A stretch of 64,000 bases of DNA from Azolla caroliniana (taxonomy: Eukaryota; Plantae; Polypodiophyta). This document shows, piece after piece, positions 10,047-48,394 of this stretch (position 1 is the stretch's first letter; each line of letters opens with the position of its first letter). The translations under genes were made by a program, and so were the position numbers. The stretch covers positions 20,398,001 to 20,462,000 of the forward strand of contig JBHGNT010000001.1 of assembly GCA_043228905.1 (NCBI GenBank), written 5' to 3'. Below the pieces are notes generated by a model, which saw only the letters and a program-made list of their open reading frames with translations, was not told where the DNA came from and made no database searches.

Positions 10047-10115
10047 GGTTGGAAGTAGGATTTGAACCTTGCACGTCTAAAATAAGAAGCAATTATCATT
10101 CCACTAAAGCTACTA
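10047..10115 (-). promoter_or_regulatory. tRNA-like Pol III A-box/B-box cassette in the F LTR
   Basis: Minus strand TAGCTTTAGTGG (10112-10101) and GGTTCAAATCC (10068-10058), 44 nt apart. A degraded copy lies at ~25106-25174. Confidence 0.6.
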
Positions 10116-10861
10116 CTACATGCTTTACATTTTGTATATTTTCTTTTCATATTCAATATTTCATAGGTAGCAAACAGTCAAAACTGTATACACAAAACCA
10201 TGGTTTTTAGCCCATGGTTTTGTGCATGTCATAAGCAAAACCGTGTGCACAAAGCCATGGTTTTAGCCCATGGTTTTGTGCATGTCACAAGCATGGAGAG
10301 ACCTATAAAAGCCTCTAGTAAGGCTTGTTGAGTGATAAGCTCAACATTCAGTGCATAATACGGTGCGGTGCGTAACCCAATGCGTAGACTGGGTGCGTAA
10401 AATAGTACGCATAACGTGGTCGTATCGGTGCGTAAACTGGAAGGTCGTTAGTATGGTATTCCTTGTAAGGAATAATTTTGGGAGTTAGTGTAGCAGGCTC
10501 ATTTATGAGCATTCAAGTACTATCAGTACTTGTGTGAGCCCAATAGTTAGGGTTTGTATATAAGGTGCTCACTGAGCACGAAGTATGTACAGAACAGAGC
10601 ATTATTTTTGAATCTGAGTTTCTGTTATTTGCTCACTCTGTCTCTCCCTCTCCATATCCATCTCTGCGTTTTCAATGTTTTACCGAACTGTCTTATTCTC
10701 CTGAACTGTGCACTCTTTGTCTTACGCACACGCTTCCGCACAACATATTCTTTTACATGGTATCAGAGCGCGAGGGTTGAGAACCTCTGCATCCGACAAG
10801 AAAAGTTTGTGACGAAACAGAGTTGAAGTTGTTCGCTTTTCGAGAAGAAAAAGACAGTACT

Positions 10862-12036
10862 ATGGACAGAGGAATGGGAAGCTCACTTCCGACTGAAAAG
10901 CTTGACAGAAGCTACTACGCATCTTGGTCTTACAAGGTGCACCAGTACCTACTTGGCCATGGCTACTGGAGTTATGTCGAAGGAGCAAACGATGTGGCAC
11001 CCGACTCCACACAGAGGGACTATCCGGCTTCGGAACAAGTGGCAAGCAGAGTGTTGCACTGCTTCGCGTTCTGTGTGAGCGATCAACTTTTGGGCTATAT
11101 TCGGGATGCCAAGATGCCTAAGGACGCATCGGCGAATCTCAAGAGGATTTTCGCCGCCAACACAATGGCTAGAAAGCTGCCACTCAGACAGGAGCTTAGC
11201 AATGTACAACAAAGAGATATGTCGGTGGCTGATTACACCACCGAAGACCAAAGAAATCTGCGACTCTCTCGCCTCCGTCAACGTGAACGTCGAGGAAGAT
11301 GAAATGGTGCAGGTTTTTCTTGGTGGCTTGGCGTCAAAGTTTAGACCTCTCCGAACGGCGGTCTGCACGAGGGAGATTACGCCTTAGTTTTTCGAGCTTC
11401 AGGCAATGTTGCTCATAGAAGAAAACCACGCACGTGCATCGACGAGTGTGCACGCCGATGGCAAGTTGGTTTACACAGGGGATGATAGGCCCTATGGTCG
11501 TGGTCAATGAGGCGTATTAGCGCGCAATGGGGGTGGCCGAAAAGAGCAGAATGTATGGTATAATAGAGATGCCGGAAGCAATTCTGAACCCTCCGCAAGC
11601 AGGGGGAGTCATGGCTGTGCTGGAAGACGGCAAGAGAAGACCGCGCCGGATTGCTGGTACTGTGGCAAGAAAGGCCACAAGTAGAGCGAGTGCTGGAAAA
11701 AGCGAGCCAATTCGGACAAAGCTAGATCGAGCCGAAGAGACGCAGACAGGCATCAAAGATCACACCACGCAGAAGACTCTAAACGACCTTTGTAATGAAG
11801 CATAAAGTCAATTTAATGGCCGTGAACACCTCAAAATCAAGCAAGGTGTGCTATGTTGATTCCAGGGTGTCAAATCATATGATGAAGCACGAGGAATGGT
11901 TCTCGTACTTGGAGAAGCCGGAATCACGAGGGGTTGTCGAAATGGGAGATGACACCCCGCATACCATCGAACATGTCGCCGAAGTTCCCCTCAGCCACAT
12001 CGGGCAGAAAGGGAAGCTAATGAACGTATTGCACAT
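10862..12036 (+). pseudogene. H gag and protease (5' part)
   Basis: EKLDRSYYASW gag start, CWYCGKKGH knuckle (~11653) and YVDSRVSNHM protease motif. Contains frameshifts. Confidence 0.85.
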
Positions 12037-15000
12037 TGTTGTGAAGAATTCCGGCTATAGTGTGAAACCGGGATGGAATAGGGCGAGTCGGTGGTGTGCA
12101 GCGTGTGCACATGTATAGTAGGAAACGGTGTATAGAATATGGAGGAGTATTTATCGCACACTGTAACGCATCCCTCTCCTTGTCCTATAAAAGGAAGCGA
12201 GTGCCTCTTGTGAAGTGGTTGCCCATTTTGAGTTAGGAGGGTATACCACTTAGGTCGAAGGTGTGTTAGTTCTTCTTCTTCTTACTTTAGAGTTCTTTGA
12301 GGTCTTCTTTTTTGTGTCTGTTTAGGGTTTTAGCCCGGTGAAGATCTTGGATGTACTTCTGCTCAGCCTCTTATGCAAGACCCCGCACGGCGCGACGAGC
12401 CCGAGAGCTCCCCGACGGCGGCTTGGCAGCAGACTACTGTTGTGACCTAGCCTACTTCAGTCCGGCTCGGAGCTGGAGTTGTATCTTGCTCTTGTTTGTA
12501 CATACATACATATATGTATGTAGTGAAGTTCTGAGCATTTGTGTCTTCGTCAGTGTCTTTGGAGTTCCTTCTTTCTGTTTTATGTACATAGGATGTGTGT
12601 GCCTAGTCAGTGTTGCGTGCACGCCCTTTTCTCTCTCTCATACAGTTGCTCCCTGTACGTATCCGGAAACGCTCTGGTTGGTGTCTTGGCCGGTCGCGGG
12701 AAGAAGTGAGGCTCGACCTTCCATACTCCGTCTCGCTCTCATCCGAGACCCCCATGGTTCCGCCCCTTCTACACGCACACGCGTAACAACGCGAAATATT
12801 TGGTGAACCTGACATGAAGGGCGGCAAGGGAGAATGGAGTTAGAAGAAGACGACTTCGCGCAACTTTTTGTCGAAGCAGTGAGAGCGTTTAGACGAGCAA
12901 CAGCAAGACGAGAGTCCGCGCAACAAGCAGTTGAGCGAGTGGTCGAAAGAGTTGGCCGTTTCAACGGGGACAAGGTCCCATTCTACTTGGAAGCCTATAA
13001 CGCGGAAATGGAGGAGTGAGATGTAGACGAGGCGTTGAGGCTGGAGTTCTTCTGTCTGGTCATCATCGTCCCTATGCACGTGGAAGTGAAGGAGCTCCGA
13101 GAAGCTCATAGTTCGTGGGAGGCCTTTGAAGAGGCACTCCTGCAGGCATATGGAGGACAACAGAAGAGTCGGGGACGATGCGACTTCAACCAGTGGGTTG
13201 CATCGGCGAAGACCCACTAGGGCGCAATGAAGGCATTCTGAGATGGGGACAAGGTCCCATTCTACTTGGAAGCCTACAATGCGGAAATGGAGGAGCGAGA
13301 TGTAGACGAGGCGTTGAGGCTGGAGTTCTTCTGTCAGGTCATCATCGTCCCTATGCACGTGGAAGTGAAGGAGCTCATAGTTCGTGGGATGCCTTTGAAG
13401 AGGCGCTCCTGCAGGCATATGGAGGACAGCAGAAGAGTCGGGGACGATGCGACTTCAACCAGTGGGTTGCATCGGCGAAGACCAACTAGGGCACAATGAA
13501 GGCGTTCTAAGAGTTCAAGCGGCGGCTTGTTCGGCTCCCTGAGCGGGAACAAGGTTTGGTGGGGGCGGACAAAGTCCTGTTGTTTGTTAAGTTGATCGAC
13601 TGAGCGGAACGGGAGGCCATCGGGATTGAGCTCGAGGACGAGGACGGAGCGAATGGCCTTACGGAGGACTGGTTGAAGGTCGGAAGGGTATGCCAACGAC
13701 TAGATGACAAGCTGGTCGAGAAGGCTAGGAGGAAGGCGCGCGACGGTGCGCCATCACAGCGGGAAGAGCTCGAACGGCAAAGAGAGTAGGCAAGGCTCGG
13801 CTTCAGGGCCAGGATTTCAGAGGCGTACACAACTCTCGAGGCAATGATCGAGGAAGAGGAAAGATCGCGGCCGCAAGCTGACGCTGAGGAGACGAACTTG
13901 CCCCACGAGATGGCAGAAGATCAGTACGACGGTGCCACGGGAGAGGGCGTAGAACAAAACGCCCTCTTGACTTGCGGAGATAGAACGGCCGAGGACGAGG
14001 CCGAGATACTGATCACGGAATCAGAACATTGGGGGACCGGTGGTTTCGGGCTCGTCAGCCCGGAATTCCGGACATTGGAGAAGCAAGCCCAGGCGGGGCT
14101 TACGGGATCGGTAAGAAGACAACCACCGACCACGAGGAGCCGGTGGCTACGGACAAGGACGTAAAACGGACAAGCAATTCTTCGCATCTTCCCACACTTT
14201 CTGCCGAGACGATGGCAGTCGGGCCCAAGTGCCCACGTCAGTCTCAAGAGGAGGAAGGCGGCGGCGTGAGACTGAGAATCACCGACGAGATGACGGGGAA
14301 AGAGTGAACAAGAGCCCTCGGGACCGATTCGAGAGAACTTAGCATTCGGGCCCTTATGCCCATGTGAGACCGAGGAGATGGATGACAATATCGGGGAGAC
14401 TCAGTCCTGGCACAATGCCAACGAAGATGGATGGGAAATGGCCCGCGAGAAGGTTGAAGAAGAGACCAAGAAACGGCCCGACCGGGAACCGAACCGCGTG
14501 GCGCTCCGATTCGGATGGAGCGCGATCCGATCGTGGATTGTTCGACCGGGGTGCGGATACGGGAGAGGGTGTGAAACGAGCTGCCCTCTTTTACATGGGG
14601 AGAATGACCGACCGGGCGAAGGTCGGGAATCAAAAGGAAGGTGATCAAGGGTTCGGAACGCGTCCGGTAGGATCGGCATCGGAACCGAAAATCCGGACAT
14701 TAGAGAATCAAGCCCAGGCAGGGCTTGATTGATCACAGAGCGGATGCTTTCCACCGACACCACTAAAAGGGTCGGTGGCCCCGGGGGAATTGTCGCGAGC
14801 CGTTACGAAATTGGTGTCCCCACATCTTGACTAGAGACTTCGGCAGTTCGAGCCAACATGGCAACGTGAGACCGAAAGATATGGAAGATGGAGGCGGGAA
14901 CACAGCAAGGAGAGTGACGACGAATCCGGTGAAAGATCAAGGGATGAAGCAGAGAGCGAAGACCGGTCCTATGGATCACCTCACACCGAGCTAGAGACTT

Positions 15001-17066
15001 CGGCGGTCGGCACCAGGTCCGACGTAAGACCAAGATAATGACGGTGGCAGTAGGAGAACGGGACCCGGCCATCCAGAGAGTGGCGGAGCGGAATTCCGGA
15101 TAACCGATCCGGAAGTGGGGAGAGAGCAGGCCTACGAAGAGGCCGAGAACACGGTACGTCGGTACCACGGGAGAGTGTGTGGAGTGAGCCACCCTCCTAA
15201 AGTAAGGAACGGTGGCGGCGGCAAGGCGGGCAACCGAAGGTAGAAGGGGAGGTCCCGCGAAGATCCTCACACCGATCCGGCAGTCGGCCGGAGTGCCGGC
15301 GTGAGTCCTATAAGAAGGGACGGTGGTGGCAGGTGAACGTGATCGGACGACGGAAAGCAGAGTGAAAGGAGGTGTGAGGCCGGCGAGGCGGCCACGAACC
15401 GGATACGGACCCGACCGGCAGAGTCGGCAAGACAAAGATCGGATGCGCTTGGTACATGAGTTAGTGACCCAACAAGACGGAGGGCGAAGAAGGATCCTTC
15501 ACACTTGTCTGGAGACTTTGGTTGTTCGGCCGACGTGGCAACGTGATATCGAGGGTAATGGAAGGTGACGGCAAGGGGACGAAGGCAGCAATAGTAGAGG
15601 CACCGACCAGCCAAAGCGTTACGTGAACGAAGGAGGTCACGCGGGTCGGGACGCAGCAAGGATGATCTTCGGGTAGGCTGCCGGGAACACCCGGTTAAGG
15701 AGCAGTGTGCAGAGCCGGAAAGAGCACACCCGAAAGCGGAACGAAAGACGTGCGTGTGGCCATCAAGGGCCAAAGTGAAGCACGAGTACGGGACGATGTT
15801 TGGCACAGGCGGTGCCGAACAAGGGAGGCGGAACACTGGCGCACGGAGGTGCCAGAGCGGGAACACCGGCGCGGAGATAGGTTGCCGGTTCAGGTCATCT
15901 CGCATATAAGACCAAGACGAAGGCGATGGAGGTCAGCGCGGGACGAGAACCGGGACGATGCGAAGGTCGACGGAGGCCAAGTGGGCCATCACGGGTGCTC
16001 CTCAGACGGAGGAGGCCGCGTAACCGAAGGAACGAGGGGCGTGCATGCGGTCAAGAGAAGGCCCAACGGGGAAGCACGCGCACTGCGGGATCGCCGTAGG
16101 GACCTATCGACGGGTCGAGTGAGCGTACGAAGAGGCAAGCGCAAGGAGGAAGCGGAGCCGGCAGTTCATATCAACGAGACCAACATGACAGCCGGAATGC
16201 GGAATACGAAAGACCGGTTTCTCACTGGCCGGAATCTCTCCCCTTTTCTAAACTTGGCACGTACCGGTGGCCGTGCGGTTTGGTGGGGCCGGATGTCGTG
16301 AAGAATTCTGGCTATAGTGTGAAACCGGGGTGGAATACGGCGAGTCGCTGGTGTGCAACGTGTGCACATGTATAGTAGGAAACGATGTATAGAATATGGG
16401 GGAGTCTTTATTGCACACTGTAACGCATCCCTCTCCTTGTTCTATGAAAAGAAGCGAGCGCCTCTTGTGAAGGGGTTGCCCATTTTGAGTTAGGAGGGTA
16501 TACCACTTAGGTCGAAGGTGTGTTAGTTCTTCTTCTTCTTACTTTAGAGTTCTTTGAGGTCTTCTTCTTCGTGTCTATTTAGGGTTTTAGCCCGGTGAAG
16601 AGCTTGGATGTTCTGTGGGGGCTTACTTCTGCTCAGCCTCCTGTGCAAGACCCCGCTCAGCGCGACGAGCCCGAGAGCTCCCCGACGGTGGCTTGGCGGC
16701 AGACTACTATTGTGACCTAGCCTACCTCAATCTGGCTCGGAGCCGGAGTTGTATCTTGCTCTTGTTTGTACATACATACATATATATAGTGAAGTTCTGA
16801 GCATTTGTGTCTTCGTCGGTGTCTTTGGAGTTCCTTCTTTCTGGTTTATGTACATAGGATGCGTGTGCCTAGTCAGTGTTGCGTGCGCGCCCTTTTCTCT
16901 CTCTCATACGGTTGTTCCCTATACGTATCCGGAAACGCTCTGGTTGGTGTCTTGGCTAGTCGCGGGAAGAAGTGAGGCTCGATCTTCCATACTCCGTCTC
17001 TCTCTCGTCCGAGACCCCCGTGGTTCCGCCCCTTCTACACGCACGCGCGCGCGTAACAATGCGACA
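12037..17066 (+). mobile_element. Element E: non-autonomous (gag-only) Trp-primed LTR element inserted in the H protease
   Basis: LTRs 12037-12796 and 16294-17066, PBS TGGTGAACCTGACATGAA at 12801. TSD ACAT/ACGT restores VLHVPTITRNL. Confidence 0.9.
12834..14310 (+). pseudogene. E gag remnant with a ~277-bp tandem duplication, followed by an acidic extension
   Basis: GRFNGDKVPFYLEAYNAEM is similar to G gag GRFSGKDATKYLASYGAEM. 12967-13240 is repeated at 13245-13505. Confidence 0.75.
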
Positions 17067-20000
17067 ACGTCCCAACAATAACAAGGAACCTTGTGTCGGT
17101 TGGACAGATCATCGACCAAGGTAAGCATGTTCGATTCACGTACCTCGGCTGCTTCATAGAAGAGGAAGACAAAGTGATCGCGCAAGGGCGCCGTGAAGGG
17201 AGGATGTTTATCCTCGAAACAAATAATGTGGGTACCGTTATGTTCGCGAAAGGACAAAAGGTCAAATCGGATATCGACCTGTGGCACAAGTGGTTCAACC
17301 ACGTAAATTTCCCACGGCTTTGTGAAATGCAGACGAACAACATTGTTTTTGGGTTGCCGAAATTTCGTGGCCGGAATGGCCAAATCCGCGAAGTCTGTTA
17401 AATGGGAAAACAACATCGAGTTCCATTCCCCAATGAGCGTAATCGTAGTCGAAGTCCGGCCGATTTGATCCATTGGGATGTGTGGGATCCGGCACAAAAC
17501 GCGAGTCTCGGTGGAAGTCGTTACTTTGTAACCTTCATCGATGAATTCACTCGGTACACATGGGCATGCATGATTGAGAAAAAGAGCGAAGTCTTCCCAT
17601 GTTTCCTGAAGGTGAAGAGCCTTGCTGAAAGGGAAACGGGGTGTAAGATCAAATGCCTACGGTCCGATGGTGGGAAGGAGTACTTCTCCAACCAGTTCAC
17701 ATGCTATCTACAGAAGGAGGGAATTCGACGCGAATTCTCATGTAGATACACGCCGCAACAGAACGGCGTGGCCAAGCGGATTAATTGGACAATTGAAGAA
17801 GCGGCCTAGGCAATGCTTGAAGAGAAGCATATGCCAAAATTCTATTGGGCTGAAGCCGTAAAGACGGCCGTCTACCTACAGAATCGGACTTCTGCTGATG
17901 GAGTGTCACCACATGAGCTGTACTTCGGGAAGAAGCTGAACTTGACACACTTGAGGATTTTCAGCAGCATCACGTATGTGCACATGCCGAAGGAGAAACG
18001 GAGGAAGCTGGACGCGAAAGCCGAGAAGTGTATCTGGGTCGGCTATTTGGACGAGCAAAAGGGTTATAAGTGCTATAACCCACGCACCAAACAAGAGCGT
18101 GTGAGCAGCGACATTGTGTTTGACGAGTCCGCGTCCTGCTACTTGCCTCCGACTCCGGACCTCACCTCCAATCCAATTTCTGAAGAAGAGATCAACGAGG
18201 CTGAAATGCATCCGCATGATGAGGATGTCGGAGCTCTGAGAGAGAGTCCGATCTCATTTCGGCTAAGAGGGCCGAATGAGGAGATGATGATGATACGGCG
18301 AGTAGTGCAGACTCGGCCGTGCAATCCCCGCGCAGGCAGCCGAGTAGTGCAGATGATGATGATACGGCGAGTAGTGCAGACTCGGCCGTGCATTCCCCGC
18401 GCAGGCAGCCGAGGAGATGACTTACGCGCAAGGAAAAAGGCAAGAAGAAAATGCCGGAATACGACTTCGGCAGCGCCAAGTCAGATCGGAGTGAGTCTGA
18501 CTACAGGCAAACTGAAAAGGAACCTCCATGGAAGAGTTCTACGGTAGCTGAAAAGTTCATGAAATCGGGTAATCATGAATTACGCTGATCTACCCACCTG
18601 AAGAACCCCCTAAAGAGATACGGGTATAATGAGTACATGGCGCGAGTGGTGGAAGTGCGTGAGCCGGAGAACTAAGCAGAAGCGGGGAAGGATGCAAATT
18701 GGCGTGCCGCAATGGAGGAAGAGATGTGCGCCTTAACGCAGAACAAGACACAGAACCTGGTTGATGCAACGAAGGGTGTGAAGCCGATCGGCTGCTAGTG
18801 GGTGTATAAAGTGAAACACAAAATGGATGGCTTCATCAACCGCTACAAGGCCCATTTAGTAGCAAAAGGTTACGCGCAGAAGCACGGCATGGACTATGAC
18901 GAGACCTTCGCGCCTGTTGCGAAGATGACGACCGTCCGTGTTTTGCTCGCGGTAGCAGCGGCAAAGGGGTGCCATTTACATTAGATGGATGTAAAGAACA
19001 CGTTCCTGCAAGGTGATCTTGAGGAGCAAGTGTACTTGGTACAGCCCCCCGGATTTCTATCCGAACAAAACACCTCGGCAATTTGCCGATTGAAGAAATC
19101 CTTGTATGGACTAAAGCAAGCCCCGCGAGCCTGGAATGCAAAGATTACGCAACAGGTGCGTAGGATGACGTTTGCGTCGTCGAAATCAGACTCTTCTTTA
19201 TTTGTTTGGTGAGGACAATATGGATCGGTCAGCCTTGTACGTTGATGATTTAGTCATCGCCGGTGCCGACCTTGACGAAATCCGTCAGCTTGTGGCATCG
19301 TTTGAAATGAAGGATCTCGGAAACCTTCATTACTTCCTCGGGATCGAAGTGATCCGTACCCCCGAAGGCATATTGATCAGCCAACGACATTAAGTGCTGA
19401 ATATGCTCTTCAAGTTCAAGATGGAAAACTGTAAGCCCATCTCGACCCCTCTGGATAGAAACGTGAAGCTTCGCCCAGATTCGGGCAAGGCGTGCGACCG
19501 AACACGGTTCCGACAGATTGTCGGGAGCCTTATCTATTTGATGATTACTCGGCCGGATCTTAGCTACCCGGTCAGCTAAATCAGTCAATTCATGTCCCAA
19601 CCTATGGATGAACACTTTCTGTGCATGCAAAGGATATTGTGTTATGTCTGCAGCACGAAAGACATGCCATTGTTTTATCAGGCAGGCATAGCCGAACAGT
19701 TAGTCGGCTACATGGATGCCGATTAGGCCGGAAACACCCACGATCGTCGATCCACATCCAGATATGCATTCTCGTTAGGAAGTGTGGCGATCACGTGGAG
19801 CAACAAAAAGCAACCAACAGTAGCACTGTCAAGCACGGAGGCTGAATATCGAGGGGCGATTGCGACTACATGTGAAGTCATTTGGCTAAAACGGCTATTG
19901 TGGGATCTGCATGTAGAGGTGTCTGATCCGACGACGATCTATTGTGACAACCTCAACAGTATCCATCTTGTGAAGAACCCCATTTTTCACGCCCGGACCA

Positions 20001-20700
20001 AGCACATTGAGGTGCATTACCATTTTGTCAGCGAGCGGGTCCTTTCAAGTGAAGTCAAACTAGTGCATGTTTTGACTGATCGACAGATTGCCGACATCTT
20101 CACAAAGCCTCTTGGTTTCGACAAGTTGCGGCATCACCTCGACACGCAGAACTTGAGGGGGAGAGAGGAAGATCAAGGACCATAGGAAGGTCAGGAACCA
20201 GAGCGTGAAAGGAGCGGAGGTAAGCATCACGGCGGAAGTGTCCGAGATGCAGAGTCGGATGGAGAATTTGACTTTGAACCGGTTGAAGAAGCCGAAGAAG
20301 GAAGCAAGGGCCACAAGCATAAGGAGTCGAGGACAGCCGGAACAGGGGGAGATAAGGCCAAGACTAAGACGTGGTCGGATATTGTCAAGGGCCTGAAGAC
20401 CGAAGACGAGTTGGAGACAGCCAACTCGGACAAGAGCGTAAACCGATCGGAGGAAGCCGAGTCAGTTCGGATGTTTGATTCGGATATGCTGAATCAACCA
20501 AGGGCCAAGTGGAAGAGAAGGCAGCAGAAGAGGCGCCAACACCACAACAAAAAGGAAGCTGAGAAGGGCCGTGTGAGCAGACAAGCTGACCGAAAGGGTC
20601 GAGGCGCGGGGAACCGAACGATTTGAGGAGTTCGAGCGAGGTGTGGAGCCAGGAGAAGCCGGACCATAGATTCGGCGTAGCAGGCGAAACCTCAAGTTGA
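17067..20700 (+). pseudogene. H integrase, RT and RNase H with C-terminal extension
   Basis: [63 protein letters not shown]. Confidence 0.92.
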
Positions 20701-20929: not shown

Positions 20930-21946
20930 TGTCGTGAAGATCCGTCACTACGCGCGGATCGTGAGGCGAAACTGCCGGGGTTCTGGACCAGAAGGATTTA
21001 GAGTCGATACAAGCTTTGGCGAGAAAGTACTTAAGATAGATTGGGAAAGAGAGAAGTTGAGATTACACGATCAATTTGATAACGAATTTCTTCCTCTTAA
21101 TTTTCATAAAAAAAACCGTGTTTTTTCTCCTCCCCCTTCCCTCTTTTATAGATGCTCTCATGCATATGATGCATGTGAGGGTACAAGACATGCATAAATT
21201 GCATGTTTGCCATTTGGCGCTTATGTATTACATGTGGTGCATGATAACCATGTCACTCATTTTAGTTCTCATGTATGAGAATTTACATGTTAAAGTATAA
21301 TGATAGAAATATAATTTCAACTAAATAGCATGGCTTAATGGTAAGCCAATTGACTCCTAACTTGGAGGTGCAAGGTTCGAATCCTTACCTGCCCTCCTTG
21401 TATATGTAAATATATTTATATATTTATTTATCTAGTCGCCGGTTCGCCGGATACCGTCAGTTACCGTTGCCGTCGCCGGATACCGTTGCCTCCGCCAGAT
21501 GCCGTCGGTTACCGGTGCCGCCGCCGGATTGCCGTCGGATCACCGGCTCCATCGCCGGTCCGGTTTTGGTTGGCCAAAACCCTTTACGAGTAGCTAGCCA
21601 CCTCCACTCTTAGTTCAAGTTACCTTGAACTCTCTATGCTCCACACATAGACACAAAGATAATATCTTTTGCTCCACCTTATATATGATGAGAGCTGTAT
21701 TTGTCGTGCCTATATGGGATATCTCACAATTTTCTCCTTTCCTTTTACAAACTTTATACCCTCATATCTTGACATTTAGTTGTCCGTTTCTCGTGTAATA
21801 AAGTGCATTCGAAACCTCCATCATTTTGTACTTAGATATTAAATCTATTTAAAATGTTATCTTCACAATTATTGTACTACGTGATTCATACTCGATTTCG
21901 TACGTTTTATGGGATTTTCACACTATTGCCGAAAATCTTCACGACA
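20930..21946 (-). mobile_element. Solo LTR I (probably Trp-lineage gypsy)
   Basis: 12-bp perfect terminal inverted repeat TGTCGTGAAGAT/ATCTTCACGACA and 4-bp TSD ACGG. TATAAAAGAGGG on minus at ~21150 gives the orientation. Confidence 0.85.
21326..21395 (+). promoter_or_regulatory. tRNA-like cassette in solo LTR I (D-arm/A-box and T-arm/B-box)
   Basis: GGCTT-AATGGT-AAGCC hairpin (21332-21347) and AAGG-TTCGAAT-CCTT (21372-21386). No intact acceptor stem. Confidence 0.7.
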
Positions 21947-22798
21947 ACGGTGCGCAGACAAGCCGACTGAAAGGGTCGAGGCGCGGGGAACCGAACGGTT
22001 CGAGGAGTTCGAGCGAGGCGTGGAGCCAGGAGAAGCCGGACCGTAGATCCAGCGGAGCAGGCGGAACCTCAAGTTGAGCTTGAGGGGGAGTGTTGAGTGA
22101 CAAGCTCAACATTGAGTGTGTAATACGGTGTGTAACCCAGTGCGTAGACTGGGTGCGTAAAATAGTACGCATAACGTGACCGTATCGGTGCATAAACCGG
22201 AAGGCCGTTAGTATGGTATTCCTCGTAAGGAATAATTTTAGGAGTTGGTGTAGCAGGCTCATTTATGAGCATTGAAGTACTGTCAGTACCTGTGTCAGCC
22301 CGATAGTTAGGGCTTGTATATAAGGTGCTCACTGAGCACGAAGTATGTACAAAACAGAGCATTATTTTTTAATCTGAGTTTCTGTTATCCACTCACTATG
22401 TCTCTCCCCCTCCATATCCATTTGTGCATTTTCTGCGTTTTACTGAACTGTCTTATTCTCCCGAACTGTGCACTTTGTGTCTTACGCACACACTTCCACA
22501 CAACGTATTCTTTTATAAGGCTTGTGTAAGGGAGGGCTCAATATGTGATATCACCAACACCACTATCATCAATATATTTATATTCGTCTTTATCTTCTTC
22601 ATATTTTTCTACTTCTCAAGTGTATAATCTTTCTTCTTCTTAAGTGAACAAATTTCATCCAATCTTACATTGATCGTCATCTCTTCGATAATTCCACGAA
22701 CGTCCTCCCCAGTCCAAGACCCCGGTGGTCGCTCGAGTAGCACATGCACGCGCGAATCTTTGCGACATCATTTGGTGAACCCGACGTGAAGAGCAGCA

Positions 22799-24782: not shown

Positions 24783-25989
24783 ACGATATGGTGGATTGGA
24801 TGGCGACGATGGTTTGGCTGGAAGGAATGGACGAGCTCAAAATAGAGGGACAAAGACAGTGCGGGCAAGGCACAAGAAAGGAGCAAATAGAAGGTTGACA
24901 ACCTTTGGCCCCACCACATTACTCTTTTCCTTCTTGGCACATGCCGGAGGATGTGCGGTTTGCTGGGGGTAGATGTCGTGATGTGGCGTGTTTAATGCGA
25001 GAAAAAGTGAAAAATTGAGGATACATGCACATTACACAAATACTTGTAAAAATGAAACTAATAATAAATAAACCTAGGACATGATGGCACTGAGTGCATA
25101 TTAAGGGTTGGAAGTAGGCTTTAACCCTTGCACGTCTAAGATAAGAAGCAATTATCATACCACTAAAGCTACTACTACATGCTTTACATTTTGTATATTT
25201 TCTTTTCATATTCAATATTTCATAGGTAGCAAACAATCATAACTGTGTACACAAAACCATGGTTTTTAGCCCATGGTTTTGTGCATGTCATAAGCAAAAC
25301 CGTTGTCGTGAAGAAAACCGTCCACGAGCGGAATCGGTGCACCGGAGCGTAGAAACCGACTCTTCATGCACGTGCGCCTTAAGTTGTACATAGGAGATCC
25401 TAGGTAGATTCGGTAGGTAGGGAGTAAAAGGGGAAACGGCTCCTTCCTTGCCTATAAAAGGAGGGAGATGAGGAAGGTAGAAGGATCGCGGAGAGTCGAG
25501 GACGAAGTGCTGTCGGTTTGCGTGCGAAGGCTTCTCTCTCTCTCTCTCTCTTTCCGGTTGCAAACGCCATAGCTTCCTTCTGTGCAGGTTTCGGGCGGGC
25601 TCGCGCTGCTCTGAGGAAAGCCCGAGTGCTTCCGGCAGCACCTCCAACCTACTCTTTTCCCTCTGTGCGTTTACGAGCAGGTATCGGCATCTGTTCGCCA
25701 GCCTGTTCGGTTGTAACCGACTTCGTGTTTGTTGTCTTCGTGTTCTTGTTGTTTGTCTTGTCAATACATACATACTTTCGTGTCTTTCTGTGTCGCTGTC
25801 CCATTCGCGTCTTTCCGTCGAAGGGCCGTGTCCCTGTGAATCTACGCTCGCATGTAGTGGGTCTCTTCTCTTTCTCTCTTACTCTTCGGTACAGGACCCC
25901 CGAGGTCCCGCCTCATTCCACGCATCCGCGAGGAATACCTCGACATATTTGGTGAACCCGACGTGAAGGAGGCGGCAGAAGAGCAGAAG

Positions 25990-31580: not shown

Positions 31581-32628
31581 AGGCTAGACCGGTTTTCTCC
31601 GTCCCAACACAATTGGCGCATGCCGGTGGATGCGCGGTTAGGTGGGGGTGGATGTCGTGAAGAAAACCGTCCACGAGCGGAATCGGTGCACCGGAGCGTA
31701 GAAACCGACTCTTCATGCACGTGCGCCTTAAGTTGTACATAGGAGATCCTAGGTAGATTCGGTAGGTAGGGAGTAAAAGGGGAAACGGCTCCTTCCTTGC
31801 CTATAAAAGGAGGGAGACGAGGAGGGTAGAAGGATCGCGGAGAGTTGAGGACGAAGTGCTGTCGGTTTGCGTGCGAAGGCTTCTCTCTCTCTCTCTCTCT
31901 TTCCGGTTGCAAACGCCATAGCTTCCTTCTGTGCAGGTTTCGGGCGGGCTCGCGCTGCTCTGAGGAAAGCCCGAGTGCTTCCGGCAGCACCTCCAACCTA
32001 CTCTTTTCCCTCTGTGCGTTTACGAGCAGGTATCGGCATCTGTTCGCCGGCCTGTTCGGTTGTAACCGACTTCGTGTTTGTTGTCTTCGTGTTCTTGTTG
32101 TTTGTCTTGTCAATACATACATACTTTCGTGTCTTTCTGTGTCGCTGTCCCATTCGCGTCTTTGCGTCGAAGGGCCGTGTCCCTGTGAATCTACGCTCGC
32201 ACGTAGTGGGTCTCTTCTCTTTCTCTCTTACTCTTCGGTACAGGACCCCCGAGGTCCCGCCTCATTCCACGCATCCGCGAGGAATACCTCGACACCGTGT
32301 GCACAAAACCATGGTTTTAGCCCAAGGTTTTGTGCATGTCACAAGCATGGAGAGACCTATAAAAGCCTCTAATAAGGCTTGTGTAAGGGGGGGCTCAATA
32401 TGTGATATCACCAACACCACTATCATCAATATAATTATATTCGTCTTTATCTTCTTCATATTTTTCTACTTCTCAACTGTACAATCTTTCTTCTTCTCAA
32501 GTGAACAAATTTCATCCAATCTTACACCAATCGTCATCTCTTCGATAATTCCGCAAACGTCCTCCCCAGTCCAAGACCCCAGTGGTCGCTCGAGTAGCAC
32601 ACGCACGCGCGAATCTTCGTGACAGCGT

Positions 32629-37007: not shown

Positions 37008-37849
37008 TGTCGTAGTGTAATTTGCACATTACGTGAAAATTGCATTTTGTCCCTGCGGATGGGACAAGGAGGAACCGGTAAGGAGGAACCGGCAAGGAGG
37101 AACTGGTAAGGAAAACCGGTAAGAACTTGATCAAGAAGAACCGGCAAGAGCCGGATAAAGAAGGCCGGTGAGAGTCTCTCACCGGATGAAGAGACAAATT
37201 TGTAAATAGAAGAAAATATTGTTACATGCATAGGGCAGGATTCAAACCCTATACCTCCACATAGACAAACCCCAACCTTACCATTATACTAACTTATCCT
37301 AAGTGTACTAAATATAGATTTAATACATATAAGACCTTTATTTACGCCTACCTTTATTAAAAGGTAAGTCATGCATTTTTAGAATGCATGAATACTTTAT
37401 TTATACGAAAAATGTACACCAATAAAAATTTACTCGTGCATATCTAGCGAGCATGAGCACTATATTTAGGAAATAAAAGCATAGTGTAAAAAGCAACTCA
37501 TGCACATTTAGTGTGCATGAACACTTTAGAAAAAGCACGAAGTTATGCTTAGCCTCTTCCATCCTTATATAAGGAGGAGAGAAGGATGAATGAGGTTGTT
37601 GATTATTTTACAAGGATTGATCAGTCTAATATATTCGTGGGATTCACAAGTTTATCATCAAAATTCTCTTTCTTACAATCTAAATATTCATTAAATACAC
37701 TAAACTCGTGGAATTCACGAGATTCATAACGTACCACTCTTTCTACCTATTCATTACTAGCCTTATCTCATAGTCTTCTTTCTTCTAGTCCAAAACCTCA
37801 GTGGTTCCCACCCGACTCACGCAATGATCCGAAGTTGAAAGGCACGACA
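37008..37849 (+). repeat. 3' LTR of D
   Basis: TGTCGTAGTG...CACGACA, preceded by GGAGGGGGTGAG. Confidence 0.92.
37232..37293 (-). promoter_or_regulatory. tRNA-like A/B-box cassette in the D LTR
   Basis: Minus strand TAGTATAATGGTAAG (from 37291) and GGTTTGAATCC (37248-37238), 43 nt apart. The B-box is deleted in the 5' LTR copy (~8088). Confidence 0.55.
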
Positions 37850-40001: not shown

Positions 40002-42771
40002 AAAGAGAAGGGGAAGAAGAAGATGCTAGAATATGACACCGACAACGCTAAGTCGGATCAGAGCGAATCCGACCCCAGACAAAACAGAGACACACCTTCG
40101 GAAGAGAAGTTTGAGTTGGCCAAGATGACCAGGAAATCGGCGAATCAGGAATTGCGCCGATCTGCCCGCCAAAAGCACCCCATGAAAAGGTATGGGTATA
40201 ACGAATATATGGAGCATCATTATGCGTACATGGCAAAGGTGGCAGCCGAGCGTGAGCCGGAAAGCTACGCTGAAACGGTTAAGGATTCGAACTGGCAGAA
40301 GGCCATGGAGGAAGAGATGCATGCGCTCACGGAGAATGAGACTTGGGAGTCGGTGCACGTACCGAAAGGAGTGAAGCCGATTGGTTGCCGGTACGTATAC
40401 AAGGCTAAATACAACACCAATGGCTTTGTCAATATGTACAAGGCCCGGTTAGTGGCCAAAGGCTACGCGCAACAACACGACATAGATTACAATGAGAGGT
40501 TCTTGCCGGTTGCGAAGATGATGACCGTCCTTGTCCTGATTGCAGTGGCAACAACGAAGGGGTGGCATCTATACATCAAATGAATGTAGAGAACATGTTC
40601 CTACAAGTTGATCTTCAGGAGCAGGTGTATATGGTTCAGACCCCCCTTGGATTTCAGTCCGAAGAAAGTACATCAACGTTGTGCCGATTGAAGAAGTTCC
40701 TCTACGAATTCAAGCAAGCCCCGAGTGCCTGGAACAAGAAGATCACGTAGAGACTACATCGGATGGGGTTTGCTCTGTCGAAATCAGACTCTTCACTTTT
40801 CATCCGGCAAGGTCAGAATGAGCCGGTGAGCATATTTCTCTATGTGGATGATCTTGTTATCACTGACAACGATCTGGATGAAATCGGCCGCGTCAAATCC
40901 TAGCTTGCAGCATCATTCGAAATGAAGGATCTTGGTGACCTTCATTACTTCCTCGGGATCGAAGAGATCCGCAACCCTAAAGGCATACTGATCAATCAAC
41001 CGCATTATGTGTTGAGTATACTCTTCAAATTTGGTATTACGGAATGAAAATCTGTCTAGACTCCTCTGGACCGGAATGTGAAGCTTCGCCTTGACTCCGG
41101 AACAACATGCAACCCTAAAAGGTTCCGATAGATCGTCGGAAGCCTTATCTATCTGACCATCATCCGACCAGACCTCAGTTATTTGGTCGGATTGATTAGT
41201 CAATTCATGGCGCATCCAACTGTGGAGCATCATTAGTGCGCGCACCGCATCCTAAGATATGTTAGGGCCACTAAGGACAGGGGGTTGCTATATTGGGCCA
41301 GTGTAGCCGAACAACTTGTCGGCTATACGGATGCCGAATTGGGCCGGAAAGGTTGGCGACCTCAGGTCTACATCCGGATGTGTTTTTTCACTTGGAAGCA
41401 CCGCGATCACCTGGAGTAGCAAAAAGCAGTCGACAGTGGCACTGTCAAGCACCGAGGAGCGGCTGTCGCAATGTGCAAAGCCATATGGCTAAAGAGGATC
41501 CTGAAGGATCAACGAATGGAGGTGTCTGATCCGACGACGATCTATTGCGACAACCTCAGTAGCTTCCTGCTGGCTAAGAACCCCATCTTTCACGCCCAGA
41601 CAAAGCACATTGATGTGGACTATCATTTTGTCCGAGAGCGCGTTCTCTCCGGTGAAGTGGAACTACTTCATGTTCTAGTGGATTTGTAGGTGGATGATAT
41701 CTTCACCAAATCCCTCAGCTTAGACAAGTTGCGGCAATTTTCCAATGCACTGGGCGTGCAATATCTCGATATGCCAAACTTGAGGGGGAGGAATGACTAG
41801 AGGAATTAAAGGAGGAATGAGAAAGAAGACCGAAAAGACGAGTCGAAAACTGATTTCGACTTCGGCCCGACTGAAGAAGTCGGAGTGCACGGGTCAGCTG
41901 AAGAAGACGAGACCGGACACCGGGGGAACCAGCGCAACGAAGAGCCCAAGCTAGAGCCAACTGAAAAAGGGGGCAAATCCAGAAAGACCAAGACACGAAC
42001 ATGGACCAATGTTGTGAAAGTTCTGGGAATCGAAGAAGGATTGGAGACAACCAATACGGACAAGAGATGGAACGAGTCTAAGGCAACTGATTCTAAAGAA
42101 GAGTTCGATTCAGGGGAGCCGAATCGACTAGAGGCCAAGGGACAAGGGAGCAGACAAGCCGACCGATAAGGTCGAGGTGCGCAGAACCGGACGCGTCGCA
42201 GGAAGCAAAACCGAACTAGACGAGGAGCACAAGGTAGGAGGCAGGATGTCAGGAGGAGCCAAAGAGGAGGACTAGCTACCACAGACACTGATACTACGAT
42301 CCAACCTCAATTTGAGCTTGAGGGGGAGTGTTGAGTGGACAAGCTCAACCGGATCTGGATCGGAGTCCGGAACGATGAACTAGATCGGTGTCCAGATGGT
42401 ATCCGGAACCAAGAGCCGGTTTGGAGAATTGGATCGGATTGTAACCGATAGGCCGTTAGAGGCCTATAAATCTAGCCTAGTACGTAGGCATATTTTTAGG
42501 AGTTACTGTCAGTCACTCGTTTGAGCATTGAAGTACATGTCGATACTTATGTCAGTACTTATGTCAATCCCTTTAAGGACTTGTATAAAAGGTGTTATGT
42601 AGGACACTGTATGTACAGAGCGTTATTATTTTGAATTGAGTTTATGCTAGTCTGTTCTCTCGGTCTCTCCCATGAACTCTATATTCTAAGCTTTCATTAA
42701 ACCTGTGTTTATTCTTTGTTGTTATTTGGTGTAACTGGTTTTGTCAAAGCTTCCGCATATTAGCTTTTACA
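40000..42771 (+). mobile_element. Copia J (H-related): 5'-truncated RT-RNase H, extension and 3' LTR (42329-42771)
   Basis: YKARLVAKGY, YVDD, IYCDN motifs. PPT TGAGGGGGAG followed by TGTTGAGTGG...TTTTACA. Confidence 0.85.
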
Positions 42772-43330
42772 GTTTTGGCTATCGAGTGTGGAACTTGATC
42801 AACAAGAAGGTTTTCCGGAGTCGAGACATAGTCGTCATGGAAGATAGGAACATTGCCAATTGGGAGTCAGAGAAGAAGATAGTGGACTCCACGTCTACCA
42901 ACAGAAATTGGTTGGGAGATGCTAGGAAACATCCGGTCGGAAGCCGGATGTCAACCGAAGACCATGATGAACCGGACAGATTCGTACAAAAAACTGAATC
43001 CACCGAAGAAGAGGAATCGGACACCGGAACTGGACAAGACCTCGAATCAGATTCGGATTAAGAATAGATGGAGGAACTGGTGGCCGAAAACCAAGGACAG
43101 AGATACCCTCTAACAGAGAGAAGCCCCCCTGAGAGATTTCCGGATGTAGAGTATGTGTTATTGACTAATGAGGGGAGCCGGAAAGGTTCGAAGAAGCAAA
43201 AAGATACCCACATCCGCAAGTGGTTAAGTGCCATGCAAGATGAGATGGATTTCTTGCATGAGAACCACACATACAAATTGTATGAGCTGCCGAAAGGAAA
43301 AAAATAGCTCCAGAACAAGTGAGTGTACAA
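42772..43330 (+). pseudogene. Copia fragment related to L (integrase C-terminus to RT start)
   Basis: FGYRVWNLINKKVFRSRDI and WLSAMQDEMD match L ORFs 55193..55630 and 54898..55146. Confidence 0.8.
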
Positions 43331-43519
43331 GGGAGTGAGAGAGAGAGATAGAAAGATTTTCTGTTATAACTGCCAACTGGCGAAGGTAGAGCTCTAGGTC
43401 ATTGCCTTTCAGTCTCACATGGTTGTACCTCTCCTCTATAGTGATCCCATTCGAAGTTTCGAGAACTCTCGTGGTTTTTCCTGATTAGGGGTTTCCACGA
43501 TAATACCTGTTTGCAACAT

Positions 43520-44475
43520 GACAAAACCCTAAACCCTTCCGGACTACTAAAGTTCATTGGCTGGAAAGCCCAAATATGTGAAGCTTGTCAACGTGGGAAG
43601 CAACATAGGTTCCCATTCCCCAATGAAAAGAGTTGAACCTAGAATCAGATTGACTCAATCCACACAGATGTATGGGAACTGGCAAGTTGCGTGAGCATGG
43701 GTGGGAGGCGATATTTCGTCTCCTTCATCTATGACTTTAGCCAACACACCTTGGTGTACCTCATTGAGAAGAAGAGAAAAGTCTTCTCCTGTTTCCAGGA
43801 CTTGAAAGTCTAGTCGAAAGGGAAACAGAGAGGAAGATCAAGTGTCTGCGGTTGGATGGCGGAAAAGATCAACTATCCGGCCAGTTCACAAGTTATCTGC
43901 AGGAAAAAGGAATCTAGAGGGAGTTCTCTTGTAGATACATGTTGGAGCAGAACGTTGTGGCCAAGAGATAGAACTAGACACTAGTAGAAGCGGCCAAGGC
44001 GATGCTAGAAGATAAAAGCATGCCCAGAAGTTGGAGGCGATGTTGGGTTGAAGCAATCCGAACAACCGGATATATATAGAATCAAATTTCTGCCTCTAGA
44101 GCAAAGGTGTCGCTGCACAAACTGTACTTCGGGCAGAAGCAAAATTTAGCACACCTTAGGGTATTTGGTAGTATCGCATACGAGCACGTGCCGGATGAGA
44201 GATGGAAGAAGCTGGATGCCACGGTTTTGAATATTGTTGGAAGCCTCATCTTTTTTACTATCGCTCGATTGGACCTAAGCTATCCGGTCGGCATGATTAG
44301 TCAATTCATGTCGCAGCCGACTCTCAAACACCTTCATTGTGTGCATAGGATCATGGGATATGTCAGTAACACTAAGGATAGAACCTTGTTATATCGGACT
44401 TGTGTAGCCGGAGAGCTTGTGGGCTACACGGATGATGACTAGGTCAGAAATGTCGGTGATCACCGATCGACATTC
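43520..44475 (+). pseudogene. Highly degenerate H-family copia integrase fused by deletion to the RT C-terminus
   Basis: LRVFGSIAYEHVPDERWKKLDA joined directly to IVGSLIFFTIARLDLSYPVG in ORF 44107..44442. Confidence 0.7.
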
Positions 44476-44499
44476 TTTGAATAATGATCACTAACTAGC

Positions 44500-45435
44500 A
44501 ACTTTCTTGCTATTTACAAGTATAGCCCCTAGGAGGCAATTTTTGACTATTTACGATTATAGTCTTCCGAAACGATTTTGGGGTTTGGTTTCCGATTTTG
44601 ATTTCGGTTTCGGTTTCGATACTCACCAACACGGTCCTTCTCTTCCCATCCGGGGGGACATGTTTCCCAAAAAACTCCCCCTTCACTCTGGCATGGGGTA
44701 CTTCACCAAACGGACTCTTTGTCGGCACACGTTTAGCTTTTCAGATGACGGCACCTTCGTCAGCATATCCGATCCGTTTTCGGCCATGTGGATCTTCACT
44801 AGAGAAAATTCCTTTTCTTCTACTCGCTCTTGGAGCCAATGATATCTTCTCTGGATGTGTTTGTTCCTCGTGTGCTAGGTGGCATTTTTTGCAAGGTGGA
44901 TGGCACTCTGGTTATCGCAATGGAGTTGGAATTCATCCTGCCGAATTCCTAGATCACCAATAAACTCCATCATCCATATGATTTCCTTGCCGGCTTCCGC
45001 GGCAACCATATATTCAGCTTCCATGTTCGACAACACTACGACCTTCTACAGCCTCGACTGCCACGAAACGGCTCCCCCTACATAAGTCATTACATACCCA
45101 GATGTAGATCGATTGGTATCCACATCAGCCAACATGTCTGAGTCAATATAAGCTTCCAGGAACCGAAATGGAGACACACGTTAGAGGTGCCTTTTATGAA
45201 CTGAAGTATCCACTTCACGATAGCCCAATGTTCTCTTCTGGGGTTGCTCATATATCAGCTAACCACGCCGACTGTGTATCCTATGTCTCACCTGGTACAT
45301 ACCATCGCGTACATCAGGCTTCCAATTACCGAGGCATAAGGAATCTTTGACATCTCGCCCTTCTCGGTTTTTGATTTCCGACATTGTTCCTTGCTTAGCT
45401 TGCACTTCATTGGCAGTGTCGAGCTGACCAGTTTT
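44500..45435 (-). mobile_element. L-related copia 3' fragment (RT end, RNase H, PPT, partial LTR ending ~44672)
   Basis: AACTCCCCCTTCACTC junction as at 53457. 44965-45140 is similar to 53750-53930. Confidence 0.75.
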
Positions 45436-47615
45436 TGAAAACAATATGTGTGCGGAAGCGTATGCGTAAAAACACAGAGTACACAGTTTGGTAGTACGAT
45501 AGTTCAGTGAAACACAGAAATCAGAGAGAAAGAGAGGGAGAGAGAGAGAGAGAGAGAGAGAGATAGGAGAAACTACAAACTATATTCAAAATAATTCTCT
45601 GTATGTTCTTTGTACATATTTCGTGCTCAGTGAGCACCTTTTATACAAGCCTTGACTATCAGGCTGACACAAGTATTGACAGTGCTCGACCGCTCATAAA
45701 TGAGCCTTCTACACTAACTCCCAAAACTATTCCTTACTAGGAATAACGTTCTAACGGCCTTTCGGTTTACATACCGCCACAACCATATTTTGCGTACGGT
45801 TTTATGCACCCAGTCTACGTACTGGGTTACGTACCCGTTTAGGCACCGAATGTTGAGCTTGTCTCTCAGCACTCCCCCTTTCCTCCACTTGGCCCTCAGT
45901 CAATTCGTAAAGTTCGAATCGAACATTTCGATTAAATTGGTCATTTCCGATTTAATTCCTCGTTCGCCTAAATTGGTTGTCTCCTATTCATCTTCTTTTT
46001 TCAGGCCCTTGACAACATCAGACCACGTCTTGGTCTTGGCCTTTATGCCCTGCTTGGCTGTATTTCCCTTTTGTTCGGATTTCTTTGGCCCTTCCTTTCG
46101 ATTACGACCCTTGTTTTCTTCTCCGGCTTCTTCAGGCGGCCCGAAATCGAATTCTTCATCCAATTTGGAATCACGGTCACTACCGCTCCTTTCACGCTCT
46201 TGTTCCTGTTCCTGTCTCCCCCACAAGTGTGGCGTGTCGAGGTGACGAAACCCGAGATCACCTAAGAAATGTCATAACTTGTCGAGACCAAGGGGCGTGG
46301 TGAAGATGTCGGCAACCTCCTGACCCGTCAAAACATACGCAAGTTCGACCTCACCAGAAAGGACACGCTCGCGGACAAAGTGATAGTGCACCTAAATGTG
46401 CTTGGTCCGGGCGTGGAACACAAGGTTCTTCGCAAGGTGGATGCTGTTGAGGTTGTCGCAGTAGATCGTCGTTGGATCGGACACCACTATGTGCAGATCC
46501 CATAATAGCCGTTTTAGCCAAATCACTTCGATCGTAGCGACAGAGTGCCCTCGATATTCGGCCTCTATGCTCAACAGTGCTACTGTCGGCTGCTTCTTGC
46601 TACTCCATTCGATCGCCGCACTTCGCAATGAGAATGCATATCTGGATGTGGATCTATGATCATGGGTGTTTCCGGCCCAATCGGCATTTGTGTAGCCGAC
46701 TAACTGCTTAGCTACATCTGCACGATATAACAACGCCATGTATTTCGTGCTATTGACATATCGTAATATCCTTTGCGCGCACGGAAGATGTTCGGTCGTG
46801 GGCTACGACATATATTGATTAATCATTCCGACTGGATAGCTGAGGTCCGGCCGAGTGATCATCTAGTAGATGAGGCTTCTGACAATCTGTCGAAACCGTG
46901 TTAGGTCGCATGTCTTTCCCGAATCTCGGCGAAACTTTACATTTCTATCCAAAGGGGTCGAGATGGGTTTACAATCTACCATCCCGAACTTGAAGAGCAT
47001 ATTCAGGGTGTAATGACGTTGGCTGATCAATATGCTTTATGGGGAACAAATCCCTTTGATCCGAGGAAGTAATGAAGATCGCCAAGATCCTTCATTTCGA
47101 ACGATGCCACAAGCTCAGACTTTACGCGGCTGATTTCTTCCAGGTCGGCACTGGCGATGACTAAATCATCAACATAAAGTAAAAGAACAACTGGTCCATG
47201 TGGACCTTGCTGAATGAATAACGAAGAATCCGATTTGGATGTCGTAAACCCCATTGTATGCAATCGTTGCGTAATCTTCGCGTTCCATGCTTGCGAGGCT
47301 TGCTTAAGGCCGTATAATTTCTTCTTCAATCGGCTGACTGCCGAAGTGGTCTGTTCGGACAGAAATCCAGGGGGTTGTACCATGTACACCTGTTCCTGAA
47401 GATCACCTTTCAGGAACACATTCTTTACATCCATCTGATGTAGATGCCACCCCTTCGCCGCAGCTACCGCTAGCAGAACTCACACGGTAGTCATCTTCAC
47501 GACTGGTGCGAAGGTCTCATCGTTGTCTACGCCGTGCTTATATCGGTTGACGGAGCCTTCGATGTTGTATTTCACCTTATACACCCATCTACATCCGATT
47601 GGCTTTACACCTTTT
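45436..47615 (-). mobile_element. Copia M (H-related): 3' part with LTR 45436-45871
   Basis: ORFs 47027..47434 (RT, LYVDDL), 46392..46739 (RNase H) and 45984..46226 (extension). PPT at 45872-45880. Confidence 0.85.
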
Positions 47616-47984
47616 TGTTAGGATTTTGGTCCCTCCGAATGGGATATGAGTACCCGACAACGGAAGGCCCGGTGAGAACCGGATGATGAGTACCCGGCAA
47701 GGAAGACCCTATGAGAACCGGATGACAAAGGCCCGGTGAGAACCTCTCACCAAATGAAGGGATATATATGTAAATATGTTTCTGTTAGCCCATTGTGGCT
47801 ATATTTGTAAATAGCCCGAAAGTCATATTAGTATAAATATGACCTAGGGCAAACAGAGTTATTGTTGTTGCAGATCATTGTGAAGAGTGTTGTTGCATAG
47901 TGGTGTAACTACTGTACAGAGCGTAACAGAGAGAGAGAGAGAGAGAGAGAGAGACCTAGAACAGTCTCTGTTGTAACCGCCTGT
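47616..47984 (+). repeat. Partial LTR of the L family, interrupted by N
   Basis: TGTTAGGA..GGTCCCTCC start, similar to the reverse complement of 53100-53456. Confidence 0.8.
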
Positions 47985-48149
47985 TGTCAAGATTGAGAGA
48001 GAGAAAGAGAGAGAAAGAGAGATAAAGAGATAATTGAAAGAGAATTACTATATTGAAGAGTAAAATGGATTACAAAGAGTAGGCTACAAAATGGCGTTGA
48101 ACCAATTTAGGTTTGGGATGGGTGGTAGATCCCTATTTATATGTAATAG

Positions 48150-48292
48150 AGAACACTTTAGAATATTCTAGGTTATCCTAGAATGTAGAGTAATCTAGAA
48201 TATCTCTAAAGTATTCTAGAAGGTTCTAGTGGTATAGAACACTCTAGAATATTCTAGGTCATTCTAGAATGTAGAGTAATATAGAATATTCC
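48150..48292. promoter_or_regulatory. Cluster of heat-shock-element-like nGAAn inverted repeats upstream of the N TATA box
   Basis: AGAATATTCT 48160-48169, TTCTAGAAGGTTC 48214-48226, and further GAATATTC/TTCTAGAA copies. TATAAATA on minus at ~48134-48141. Confidence 0.65.
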
Positions 48293-48338
48293 TATGATAT
48301 TAGATTTCATATTCTAAAAACTATATATATAATAATAT

Positions 48339-48394
48339 TAATACAATGGTTAAGGATTTGACATGTGTACAAGGTCGTGGGTTCAAATCCTTTT
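48339..48394 (+). promoter_or_regulatory. tRNA-like A/B-box cassette in the N LTR
   Basis: TAATACAATGGTTAAG (from 48339) and GGTCGTGGGTTCAAATCC (B-box 48380-48390), followed by TTTT. Confidence 0.6.

Follow-up and report, generated by a model that had tools for sequence, protein, structure and literature searches.

Outward-facing tRNA-type box pairs in the U3 region of coding and long-LTR retrotransposons of Azolla caroliniana

Promoters for RNA polymerase III (Pol III) have been described inside the long terminal repeats (LTRs) of small, non-coding plant retrotransposons. In the passages of Kojima (2024; PMC10886601) that we draw on, Helenus elements (TRIMp3), which belong to the miniature terminal-repeat retrotransposons (TRIMs) and include a Selaginella family, carry tRNA-derived A and B boxes in their LTRs, tRNA-like sequence is noted in not a few Repbase LTRs, and Cassandra, another TRIM, holds a Pol III promoter within its plant LTRs. 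Here we report that tRNA-type pairs of A and B boxes, which we call cassettes, also occur in LTRs within a 64-kb stretch of the Azolla caroliniana genome (GenBank assembly GCA_043228905.1, contig JBHGNT010000001.1, positions 20,398,001 to 20,462,000, forward strand; hereafter the window), a cluster of nested LTR retrotransposons in which we recognized 11 families of LTRs (A, C, D, F, G, H, I, J, K, L and N). According to the same passages, Helenus elements are non-coding and 311–1263 bp long, and their boxes, which by the supplement lie in sense orientation in Helenus-1_SMo, are proposed to be the element's own promoter, while Cassandra, also non-coding, drives its own RNA from a 5S-derived promoter. 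By contrast, families D and N of the window encode reverse transcriptase (RT) and integrase, the interior of element F spans 2.2 kb, LTR I measures 1017 bp, and the cassettes are of tRNA type and antisense to the element in all six cases at hand (I, F, D and N in the window, and L016 and L017, two relatives of N from other samples). The sequence-only reading of the window, which first pointed to the cassettes, had named Cassandra as the known precedent; this holds as far as a Pol III promoter in LTRs goes, but it missed Helenus, which is closer. tRNA boxes in LTRs are already known, and what is new is the variant found here, facing outward in the U3 region of coding or long-LTR elements that have a TATA box. 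A literature search, conducted on parts of the sources and not extending to Repbase or subscription journals, found nothing on antisense tRNA-type boxes in the U3 of coding plant LTR elements, and a term search of a review from 2025 on the host factors of plant LTR elements gave no mention of transcription factor IIIC (TFIIIC) (PMC12786077).

Box elements of this kind are also known beside promoters of other sorts. In the sections of the papers used here, tRNA genes (tDNAs) and TFIIIC sites block intergenic transcription by RNA polymerase II (Pol II) in yeast (PMC4228148), and mouse B2 short interspersed nuclear elements (SINEs) form methylation boundaries, with TFIIIC found at boundaries (PMC8136502). 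The cassettes would likely be similar to tDNAs, extra TFIIIC (ETC) sites and B2 in that B-box elements beside Pol II promoters block transcription or spreading; those, however, are host loci or free SINEs, whereas the cassettes are built into a mobile promoter and their binding is predicted. A third likeness, again from part of the source, is to trypanosomatid small nuclear RNA genes, in which opposite-facing tRNA-like A and B boxes are needed for the neighbouring promoter (PMC4950102): there, too, a non-tRNA cassette faces away from the promoter that it supports, although there a Pol III gene lies next to it, at about 104 bp, as compared with a predicted Pol II LTR promoter at 166–283 nt in our elements.

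The cassettes of the window and the LTRs that hold them are as follows.

20930-21946, minus strand: solo LTR I, 1017 bp, with a 4-bp target-site duplication (TSD) and a TATA box at about 21150; high-copy family
21331-21384, plus strand: cassette I, antisense to solo LTR I, with its A box at 21331-21341 and its B box at 21374-21384
21150-21330, minus strand: AT-rich flank and palindromic CATG-rich array of I, from cassette to TATA (F and D alike)
9915-32624, plus strand: element F, LTRs at 9915-10325 + 22516-22767 and at 24974-25303 + 32295-32624, interrupted by nested G and J
10058-10112, minus strand: cassette F5, antisense, in the U3 of the 5′ LTR of F
25107-25173, minus strand: cassette F3, in the 3′ LTR of F, B box with three substitutions relative to F5
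7877-37849, plus strand: element D, non-chromovirus Ty3/gypsy, with a broken gag-pol that has RT and integrase
8089-8133, minus strand: remnant cassette D5, with a change private to this copy in the A box and a 17-nt deletion that takes out the B box
37238-37291, minus strand: cassette D3, antisense, in the U3 of the 3′ LTR of D
47985-48452, minus strand: 3′ LTR of chromovirus N, TATA at about 48141
48339-48390, plus strand: cassette N, in antisense orientation, 62 nt within the 3′ LTR of N

The LTRs of D (7877-8687 and 37008-37849) are identical at 756 of 811 positions and have their TATA boxes at about 8404 and 37566. The F interior holds two open reading frames (ORFs), for which Pfam gave no match, and its TATA lies at 10304; N was recognized by an integrase-chromodomain ORF (49605-48445; Pfam Chromo, E 8e-14). 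All four cassettes of the sequence-only reading (I, F, D and N) were found at the coordinates and on the strands it had given, with the spacing of 41–44 nt between A and B box that it had called tRNA-like. The G18-to-G53 distance of tRNAs is about 35 nt; it was 35 nt in I, F, D, L016 and L017, and 33 nt in N. The cassette always lay upstream of the TATA box, by 189 nt in I, 201 in F, 283 in D and 206 in N, in agreement with the earlier estimate of about 180–280 bp in U3, and measured from G18 the distance was 166–283 nt over the six cassettes. Equally accurate was the caveat that the partner copies are damaged, D5 by its deletion and F3 by substitutions at 3 of 11 B-box nucleotides, as compared with 35 of 656 overall (p ~0.02, post hoc).

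A lenient search rule built from textbook A- and B-box patterns found a cassette in 4 of the 11 LTR families, every one antisense. Among 1000 dinucleotide shuffles of the 11 LTRs, 755 had no cassette, 219 had one and 26 had two, with none above two and a mean of 0.27, so that the four found exceed all shuffles, as the sequence-only reading would have it. Over the whole window the lenient rule had eight matches, four of which were weaker and outside LTRs, while a stricter tRNA-geometry rule, drawn up after the cassettes were known, matched exactly the four cassettes in 64 kb and had three matches in the 481,444 bases searched at other loci. The B box has a textbook TFIIIC consensus, from which I, F5 and N deviated at no position and D3 at one. 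A profile made from the six cassettes retrieved within the window its own training copies, which is circular, together with F3 and D5; among 86 loci from other samples it retrieved L016 and L017 only, again training copies.

What the cassettes keep is the promoter bases of a tRNA rather than a tRNA. ARAGORN called no tRNA gene, and in an Rfam tRNA rescan of three cassettes L016 scored 15.8 bits against a cut-off of 29 while I and L017 gave nothing; nor was 5S RNA among the eight Rfam hits at E up to 10. The acceptor stem, which the sequence-only reading had rightly called absent, and the D and anticodon stems were mostly no better than in shuffles, and the T stem had three to four of its five pairs. 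On these grounds (ARAGORN, Rfam below cut-off, stems near shuffle level) we rejected a functional tRNA. Nonetheless A14, G46/T47, T54, T55, R57 and A58 were present in six of six cassettes, a conservation that is partly built in because box bases served to find them. An AGGT-type motif of the variable loop, which falls outside the textbook B box, was kept in five of six and nearly so in F. The 40 nt before the putative Pol III start were 80–85% AT, as compared with 59–69% for the LTRs, and an AT-rich upstream flank belongs to plant tRNA promoters (PMC13437025, in the part used). Direct repeats of at least 8 nt flanked none of the four cassettes, and their AT-rich stretches might be decayed tails.

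To ask whether the cassette belongs to the families or to single copies, contigs of three public DNA runs (X2, X4 and X5) were compared to LTRs I, D and F; no RNA run stood among the listed holders of the sequence, and two further runs, presumed to be RNA, gave two contigs each and were uninformative on expression. In run X2 the bins of the I cassette had a depth of 330k–429k, within the ~250k–670k seen across most of the LTR, which was lower only over the repeat-rich 21385-21524, and X4 and X5 were alike. The D cassette bins reached 167k–231k, with 196k at the TATA box. The cassette is thus a family trait in I and D, as it would be on the earlier view of an LTR module. At the damaged A-box base of D5, about 100% of the depth differed from D5 in all three runs, and one contig bridged the deletion with 17 additional letters, so the damage looks private to that copy. 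The variant tables considered 40 of 65 and 40 of 248 rows, in which the absence of a row is uninformative; the one variant in the I boxes, among the 40 of 65 rows, keeps the A-box consensus. In the same runs, the I cassette core (21331-21390) also occurred in other repeats with different, self-consistent flanks, from which it is likely that further cassette-bearing families exist.

The cassette of N is conserved in its chromovirus clade across samples. A metagenome scan with the N integrase gave 79 loci (from the best 80 of 592 matches), to which viral contigs added seven. Nearest to N among the loci listed were L016 (66% integrase identity) and L017 (64%), and both have a cassette.

L016, 4049-4116, antisense: cassette just inside the 3′ LTR
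L017, 4233-4292, antisense: cassette just inside the 3′ LTR

N, L016 and L017 formed one clade with an SH-aLRT support of 100 in a quick tree of 86 rows without reference Tcn1 rows, and the L016 and L017 contigs each contain two diverged element copies. At the 74 loci with at least 250 nt downstream, the cassette was antisense in two and sense in none; the next relatives (L018, L020–L022 and L045, at 49–55%) lacked it. In the alignment of the three LTRs, 25 of 52 columns were invariant in the cassette and 44 of 155 across the remaining U3 (p 0.011). Between the cassette and the TATA box stands an array, which is of GAAnnTTC type in N (six motifs) and L017 (eight, at ~4330-4450) and a different repeat in L016; the N-clade arrays stand at window positions 48150-48330 and at 4330-4450 of L017. 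We take these GAAnnTTC-type motifs to resemble heat-shock elements, for which ONSEN is a precedent (PMC12786077, in part).

The N relatives also bear on where the genomic RNA begins. In L016 and L017, 12 nt past the LTR are complementary to an LTR site 32–33 nt after the TATA box, with changes in the one matched in the other; the PBS (primer-binding site) of N itself falls outside the window.

L016, 4456-4467: self-priming complement
L017, directly after the LTR end at ~4646: self-priming complement

This predicted self-priming fits what is proposed for Tcn1 elements (PMC6317226), whereas no priming evidence was found for SM-Tcn1 (PMC2864245). In the passages of these two papers that we used, the Tcn1 clade shares with N the chromodomain integrase and with its relatives the self-priming site, but Pol III boxes in the LTRs, as N has them, are not mentioned. 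A priming site at that position places the predicted start of the genomic RNA downstream of the cassette, which makes it unlikely that the cassette is the element's own promoter or primer. A role as reverse-transcription primer was rejected in any case, since a tRNA-type PBS is present in D, F, H and J, and a self-priming site in the N relatives.

The sequence-only reading had counted the four families as four separate cases, and this did not survive: D, F and I are of one non-chromovirus lineage with H and J, since they share TGTCGT-type ends and 4-bp target duplications with these, and D and F also the tRNA-type PBS. In H and J the U3 is short (TATA at 148) and without a cassette, compared with TATA positions of 388 in F, 555 in D and 794 in I. 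The I and F cassettes are homologous: they agree at 37 of 52 columns and form the one stretch that blastn aligns between their LTRs (51 nt, 74.5%, E 3e-4), in keeping with the word that the sequence-only reading had seen shared. That word alone proves little, since the shared 18-mer was also found in 15 viral contigs, in which no retroelement link was seen and none of six called tRNA genes overlapped the match. The D cassette agrees with I and F at 32 and 29 of 52 columns and with L017 at 32 of 52, and is no nearer to its own lineage. Profiles of one lineage found nothing significant in the other (E 0.12–10; best cross-lineage values 0.12 and 1.6). Similarity across lineages hardly extends past the boxes, so that a shared module and separate captures are indistinguishable; of the earlier alternative, a shared or convergent module, what stands is that the module is real and tRNA-derived. 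No relative of D, F and I with LTRs was among the viral contigs, and genome contigs gave one locus, L102, which ends inside pol. Taken together, the evidence supports the cassette as a real LTR module of tRNA origin and not a copy-specific insertion.

Some features of the window lie beside this argument. J is its youngest family (LTRs identical at 636 of 642 positions), and among named proteins those closest to the J polyprotein are from Riccia sorocarpa, with at most 61% identity, which suggests a non-seed land plant as host. The 4-bp target duplications of insertions D, F, H, I and J (sites 7877, 9915, 12037, 20930 and 25304) each show CG in the middle of one copy or both, a hint that targets may be chosen around CpG. 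The U3 of gypsy D at 37107-37208 matches that of copia K at 63717-63614 over about 105 nt at 77%, an exchange of U3 sequence between superfamilies; K has no cassette. Element A lacks a purine tract ahead of its 3′ LTR (4900-4926, 60825-60850), and the C LTR region at 5489-6049 holds a 280-bp tandem duplication with one sense B-box-like word per unit (one mismatch), without an A box.

What the cassettes might do is a separate question, and the reading that we favour, tentatively and at somewhat under an even chance, is that they are putative sites for TFIIIC and TFIIIB that serve as a barrier or open-chromatin anchor and keep the Pol II promoter usable within silent clusters. A tRNA or SINE head would have been captured into U3 two or three times, and what survives of it, at the outer end of U3, would be a Pol III promoter of type 2 that points outward, away from the TATA promoter. 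TFIIIC would bind the cassette, and TFIIIB may load between cassette and enhancer-like array, where the AT-rich side is turned toward array and TATA. So bound, the cassette could block read-in transcription or the spread of methylation and silent chromatin; alternatively, it might help to open the Pol II promoter, as is proposed for such boxes in trypanosomatids. Selection would have favoured the antisense orientation, since a unit placed in sense would collide with the Pol II promoter.

Several observations weigh against this reading. TFIIIC or Pol III binding, insulation and any RNA at the cassettes are predictions from the letters, and, placed in the 3′ LTR, a roadblock of TFIIIC would get in the way of the genomic RNA of the element itself as well. 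Seven of the 11 window families, the youngest (J) included, and 72 of the 74 chromovirus loci do without a cassette, D3 lacks C56, and the agreement in box bases is in part a product of the search. Checks named in the sequence-only reading were orientation bias, presence at family level and conservation above the flanks. The orientation is without exception (six of six), but counted over two or three independent origins, not four, it has a p of ~0.125–0.25, which is statistically weak. The family trait seen in I and D contrasts with F, whose depth at the cassette was 19k as compared with 88–91k near the TATA box, 4–5 times lower, so that there it may be limited to a subfamily. Finally, the excess conservation in the N clade is joined by a TATA–R core conserved about equally (22 of 53 columns), and in I the boxes are not depleted of family-level variants (1 of 40 rows, of 65).

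Other explanations have been proposed or can be framed for the same facts. The cassette could be a working Pol III gene whose short antisense RNA (~60–240 nt) gives rise to small RNAs directed at U3 or disturbs the Pol II promoter, and thereby limits the element, which we consider unlikely. Both boxes at tRNA spacing and the AT-rich upstream flank would suit such a gene, as would the inner T-stem pairs, which are kept and in L016 have one change on both sides, and the first run of four T after the B box, which comes within 1–180 nt in five cassettes (N 1, L016 12, D 22, F 65 and I 180 nt). In L017, however, no such run follows for ~1088 nt, the predicted lengths and 3′ parts have nothing in common, there is no common fold, and the T stem has three or four of its five pairs. 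A neutral relic is also improbable, in our estimate; here the head of a host SINE or tRNA would have inserted into an ancestral U3 and hitchhiked, appearing antisense through loss of harmful sense insertions. The variable-loop motif points to tRNA ancestry, the B box in I, F and D is followed by AT- or T-rich sequence, both partner copies (D5 and F3) are damaged, relatives lack the cassette, and an origin by SINE insertion has been proposed for Helenus (PMC10886601, in part). Against a relic, boxes and spacing have lasted through a turnover of the remaining U3 (the L016 array is unlike those of N and L017), I and F share nothing else by blastn, and no TSD of at least 8 nt was found at any of the four cassettes. 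In addition, loose contig ends at the I cassette agree at 0.54–0.8, as compared with 0.36 at the LTR end (best rows only), so that the other holders of the core look like larger repeats and not free SINEs.

A role at the integration or copying stage, whether as the place where Pol III-targeting elements land or as a tether of cDNA or new copies to Pol III sites, is very unlikely: both F LTRs did take a nested insertion (10325, 25303) on the upstream side of the cassette, near the promoter, but the distances to the putative start are 125 and 206 nt, on which account Ty3-like targeting was rejected, and the D, I and N cassettes have no insertions. That the cassettes are chance matches in AT-rich LTR sequence is hardly credible; the lenient rule does match four non-LTR places in the window as well, but the shuffles stopped short of the observed number, the strict rule matched the four cassettes alone within the window, and the cassette recurs at the same place in L016 and L017.

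Returning to the reading in which the cassettes hold silencing off the LTR promoter, its widest form is possible but doubtful: that coding LTR elements of unrelated lineages repeatedly captured and kept an outward tRNA promoter as an anti-silencing boundary that borrows TFIIIC and TFIIIB, guards a stress-responsive promoter and scatters thousands of sites through the genomes of non-seed plants. Chromatin boundaries are poorly understood in that group. Should the sites prove to be bound, autonomous retrotransposons would draw in cis on the host Pol III machinery and counter silencing without an encoded protein, and the high-copy families I and D would spread TFIIIC sites in very large numbers through a plant genome.

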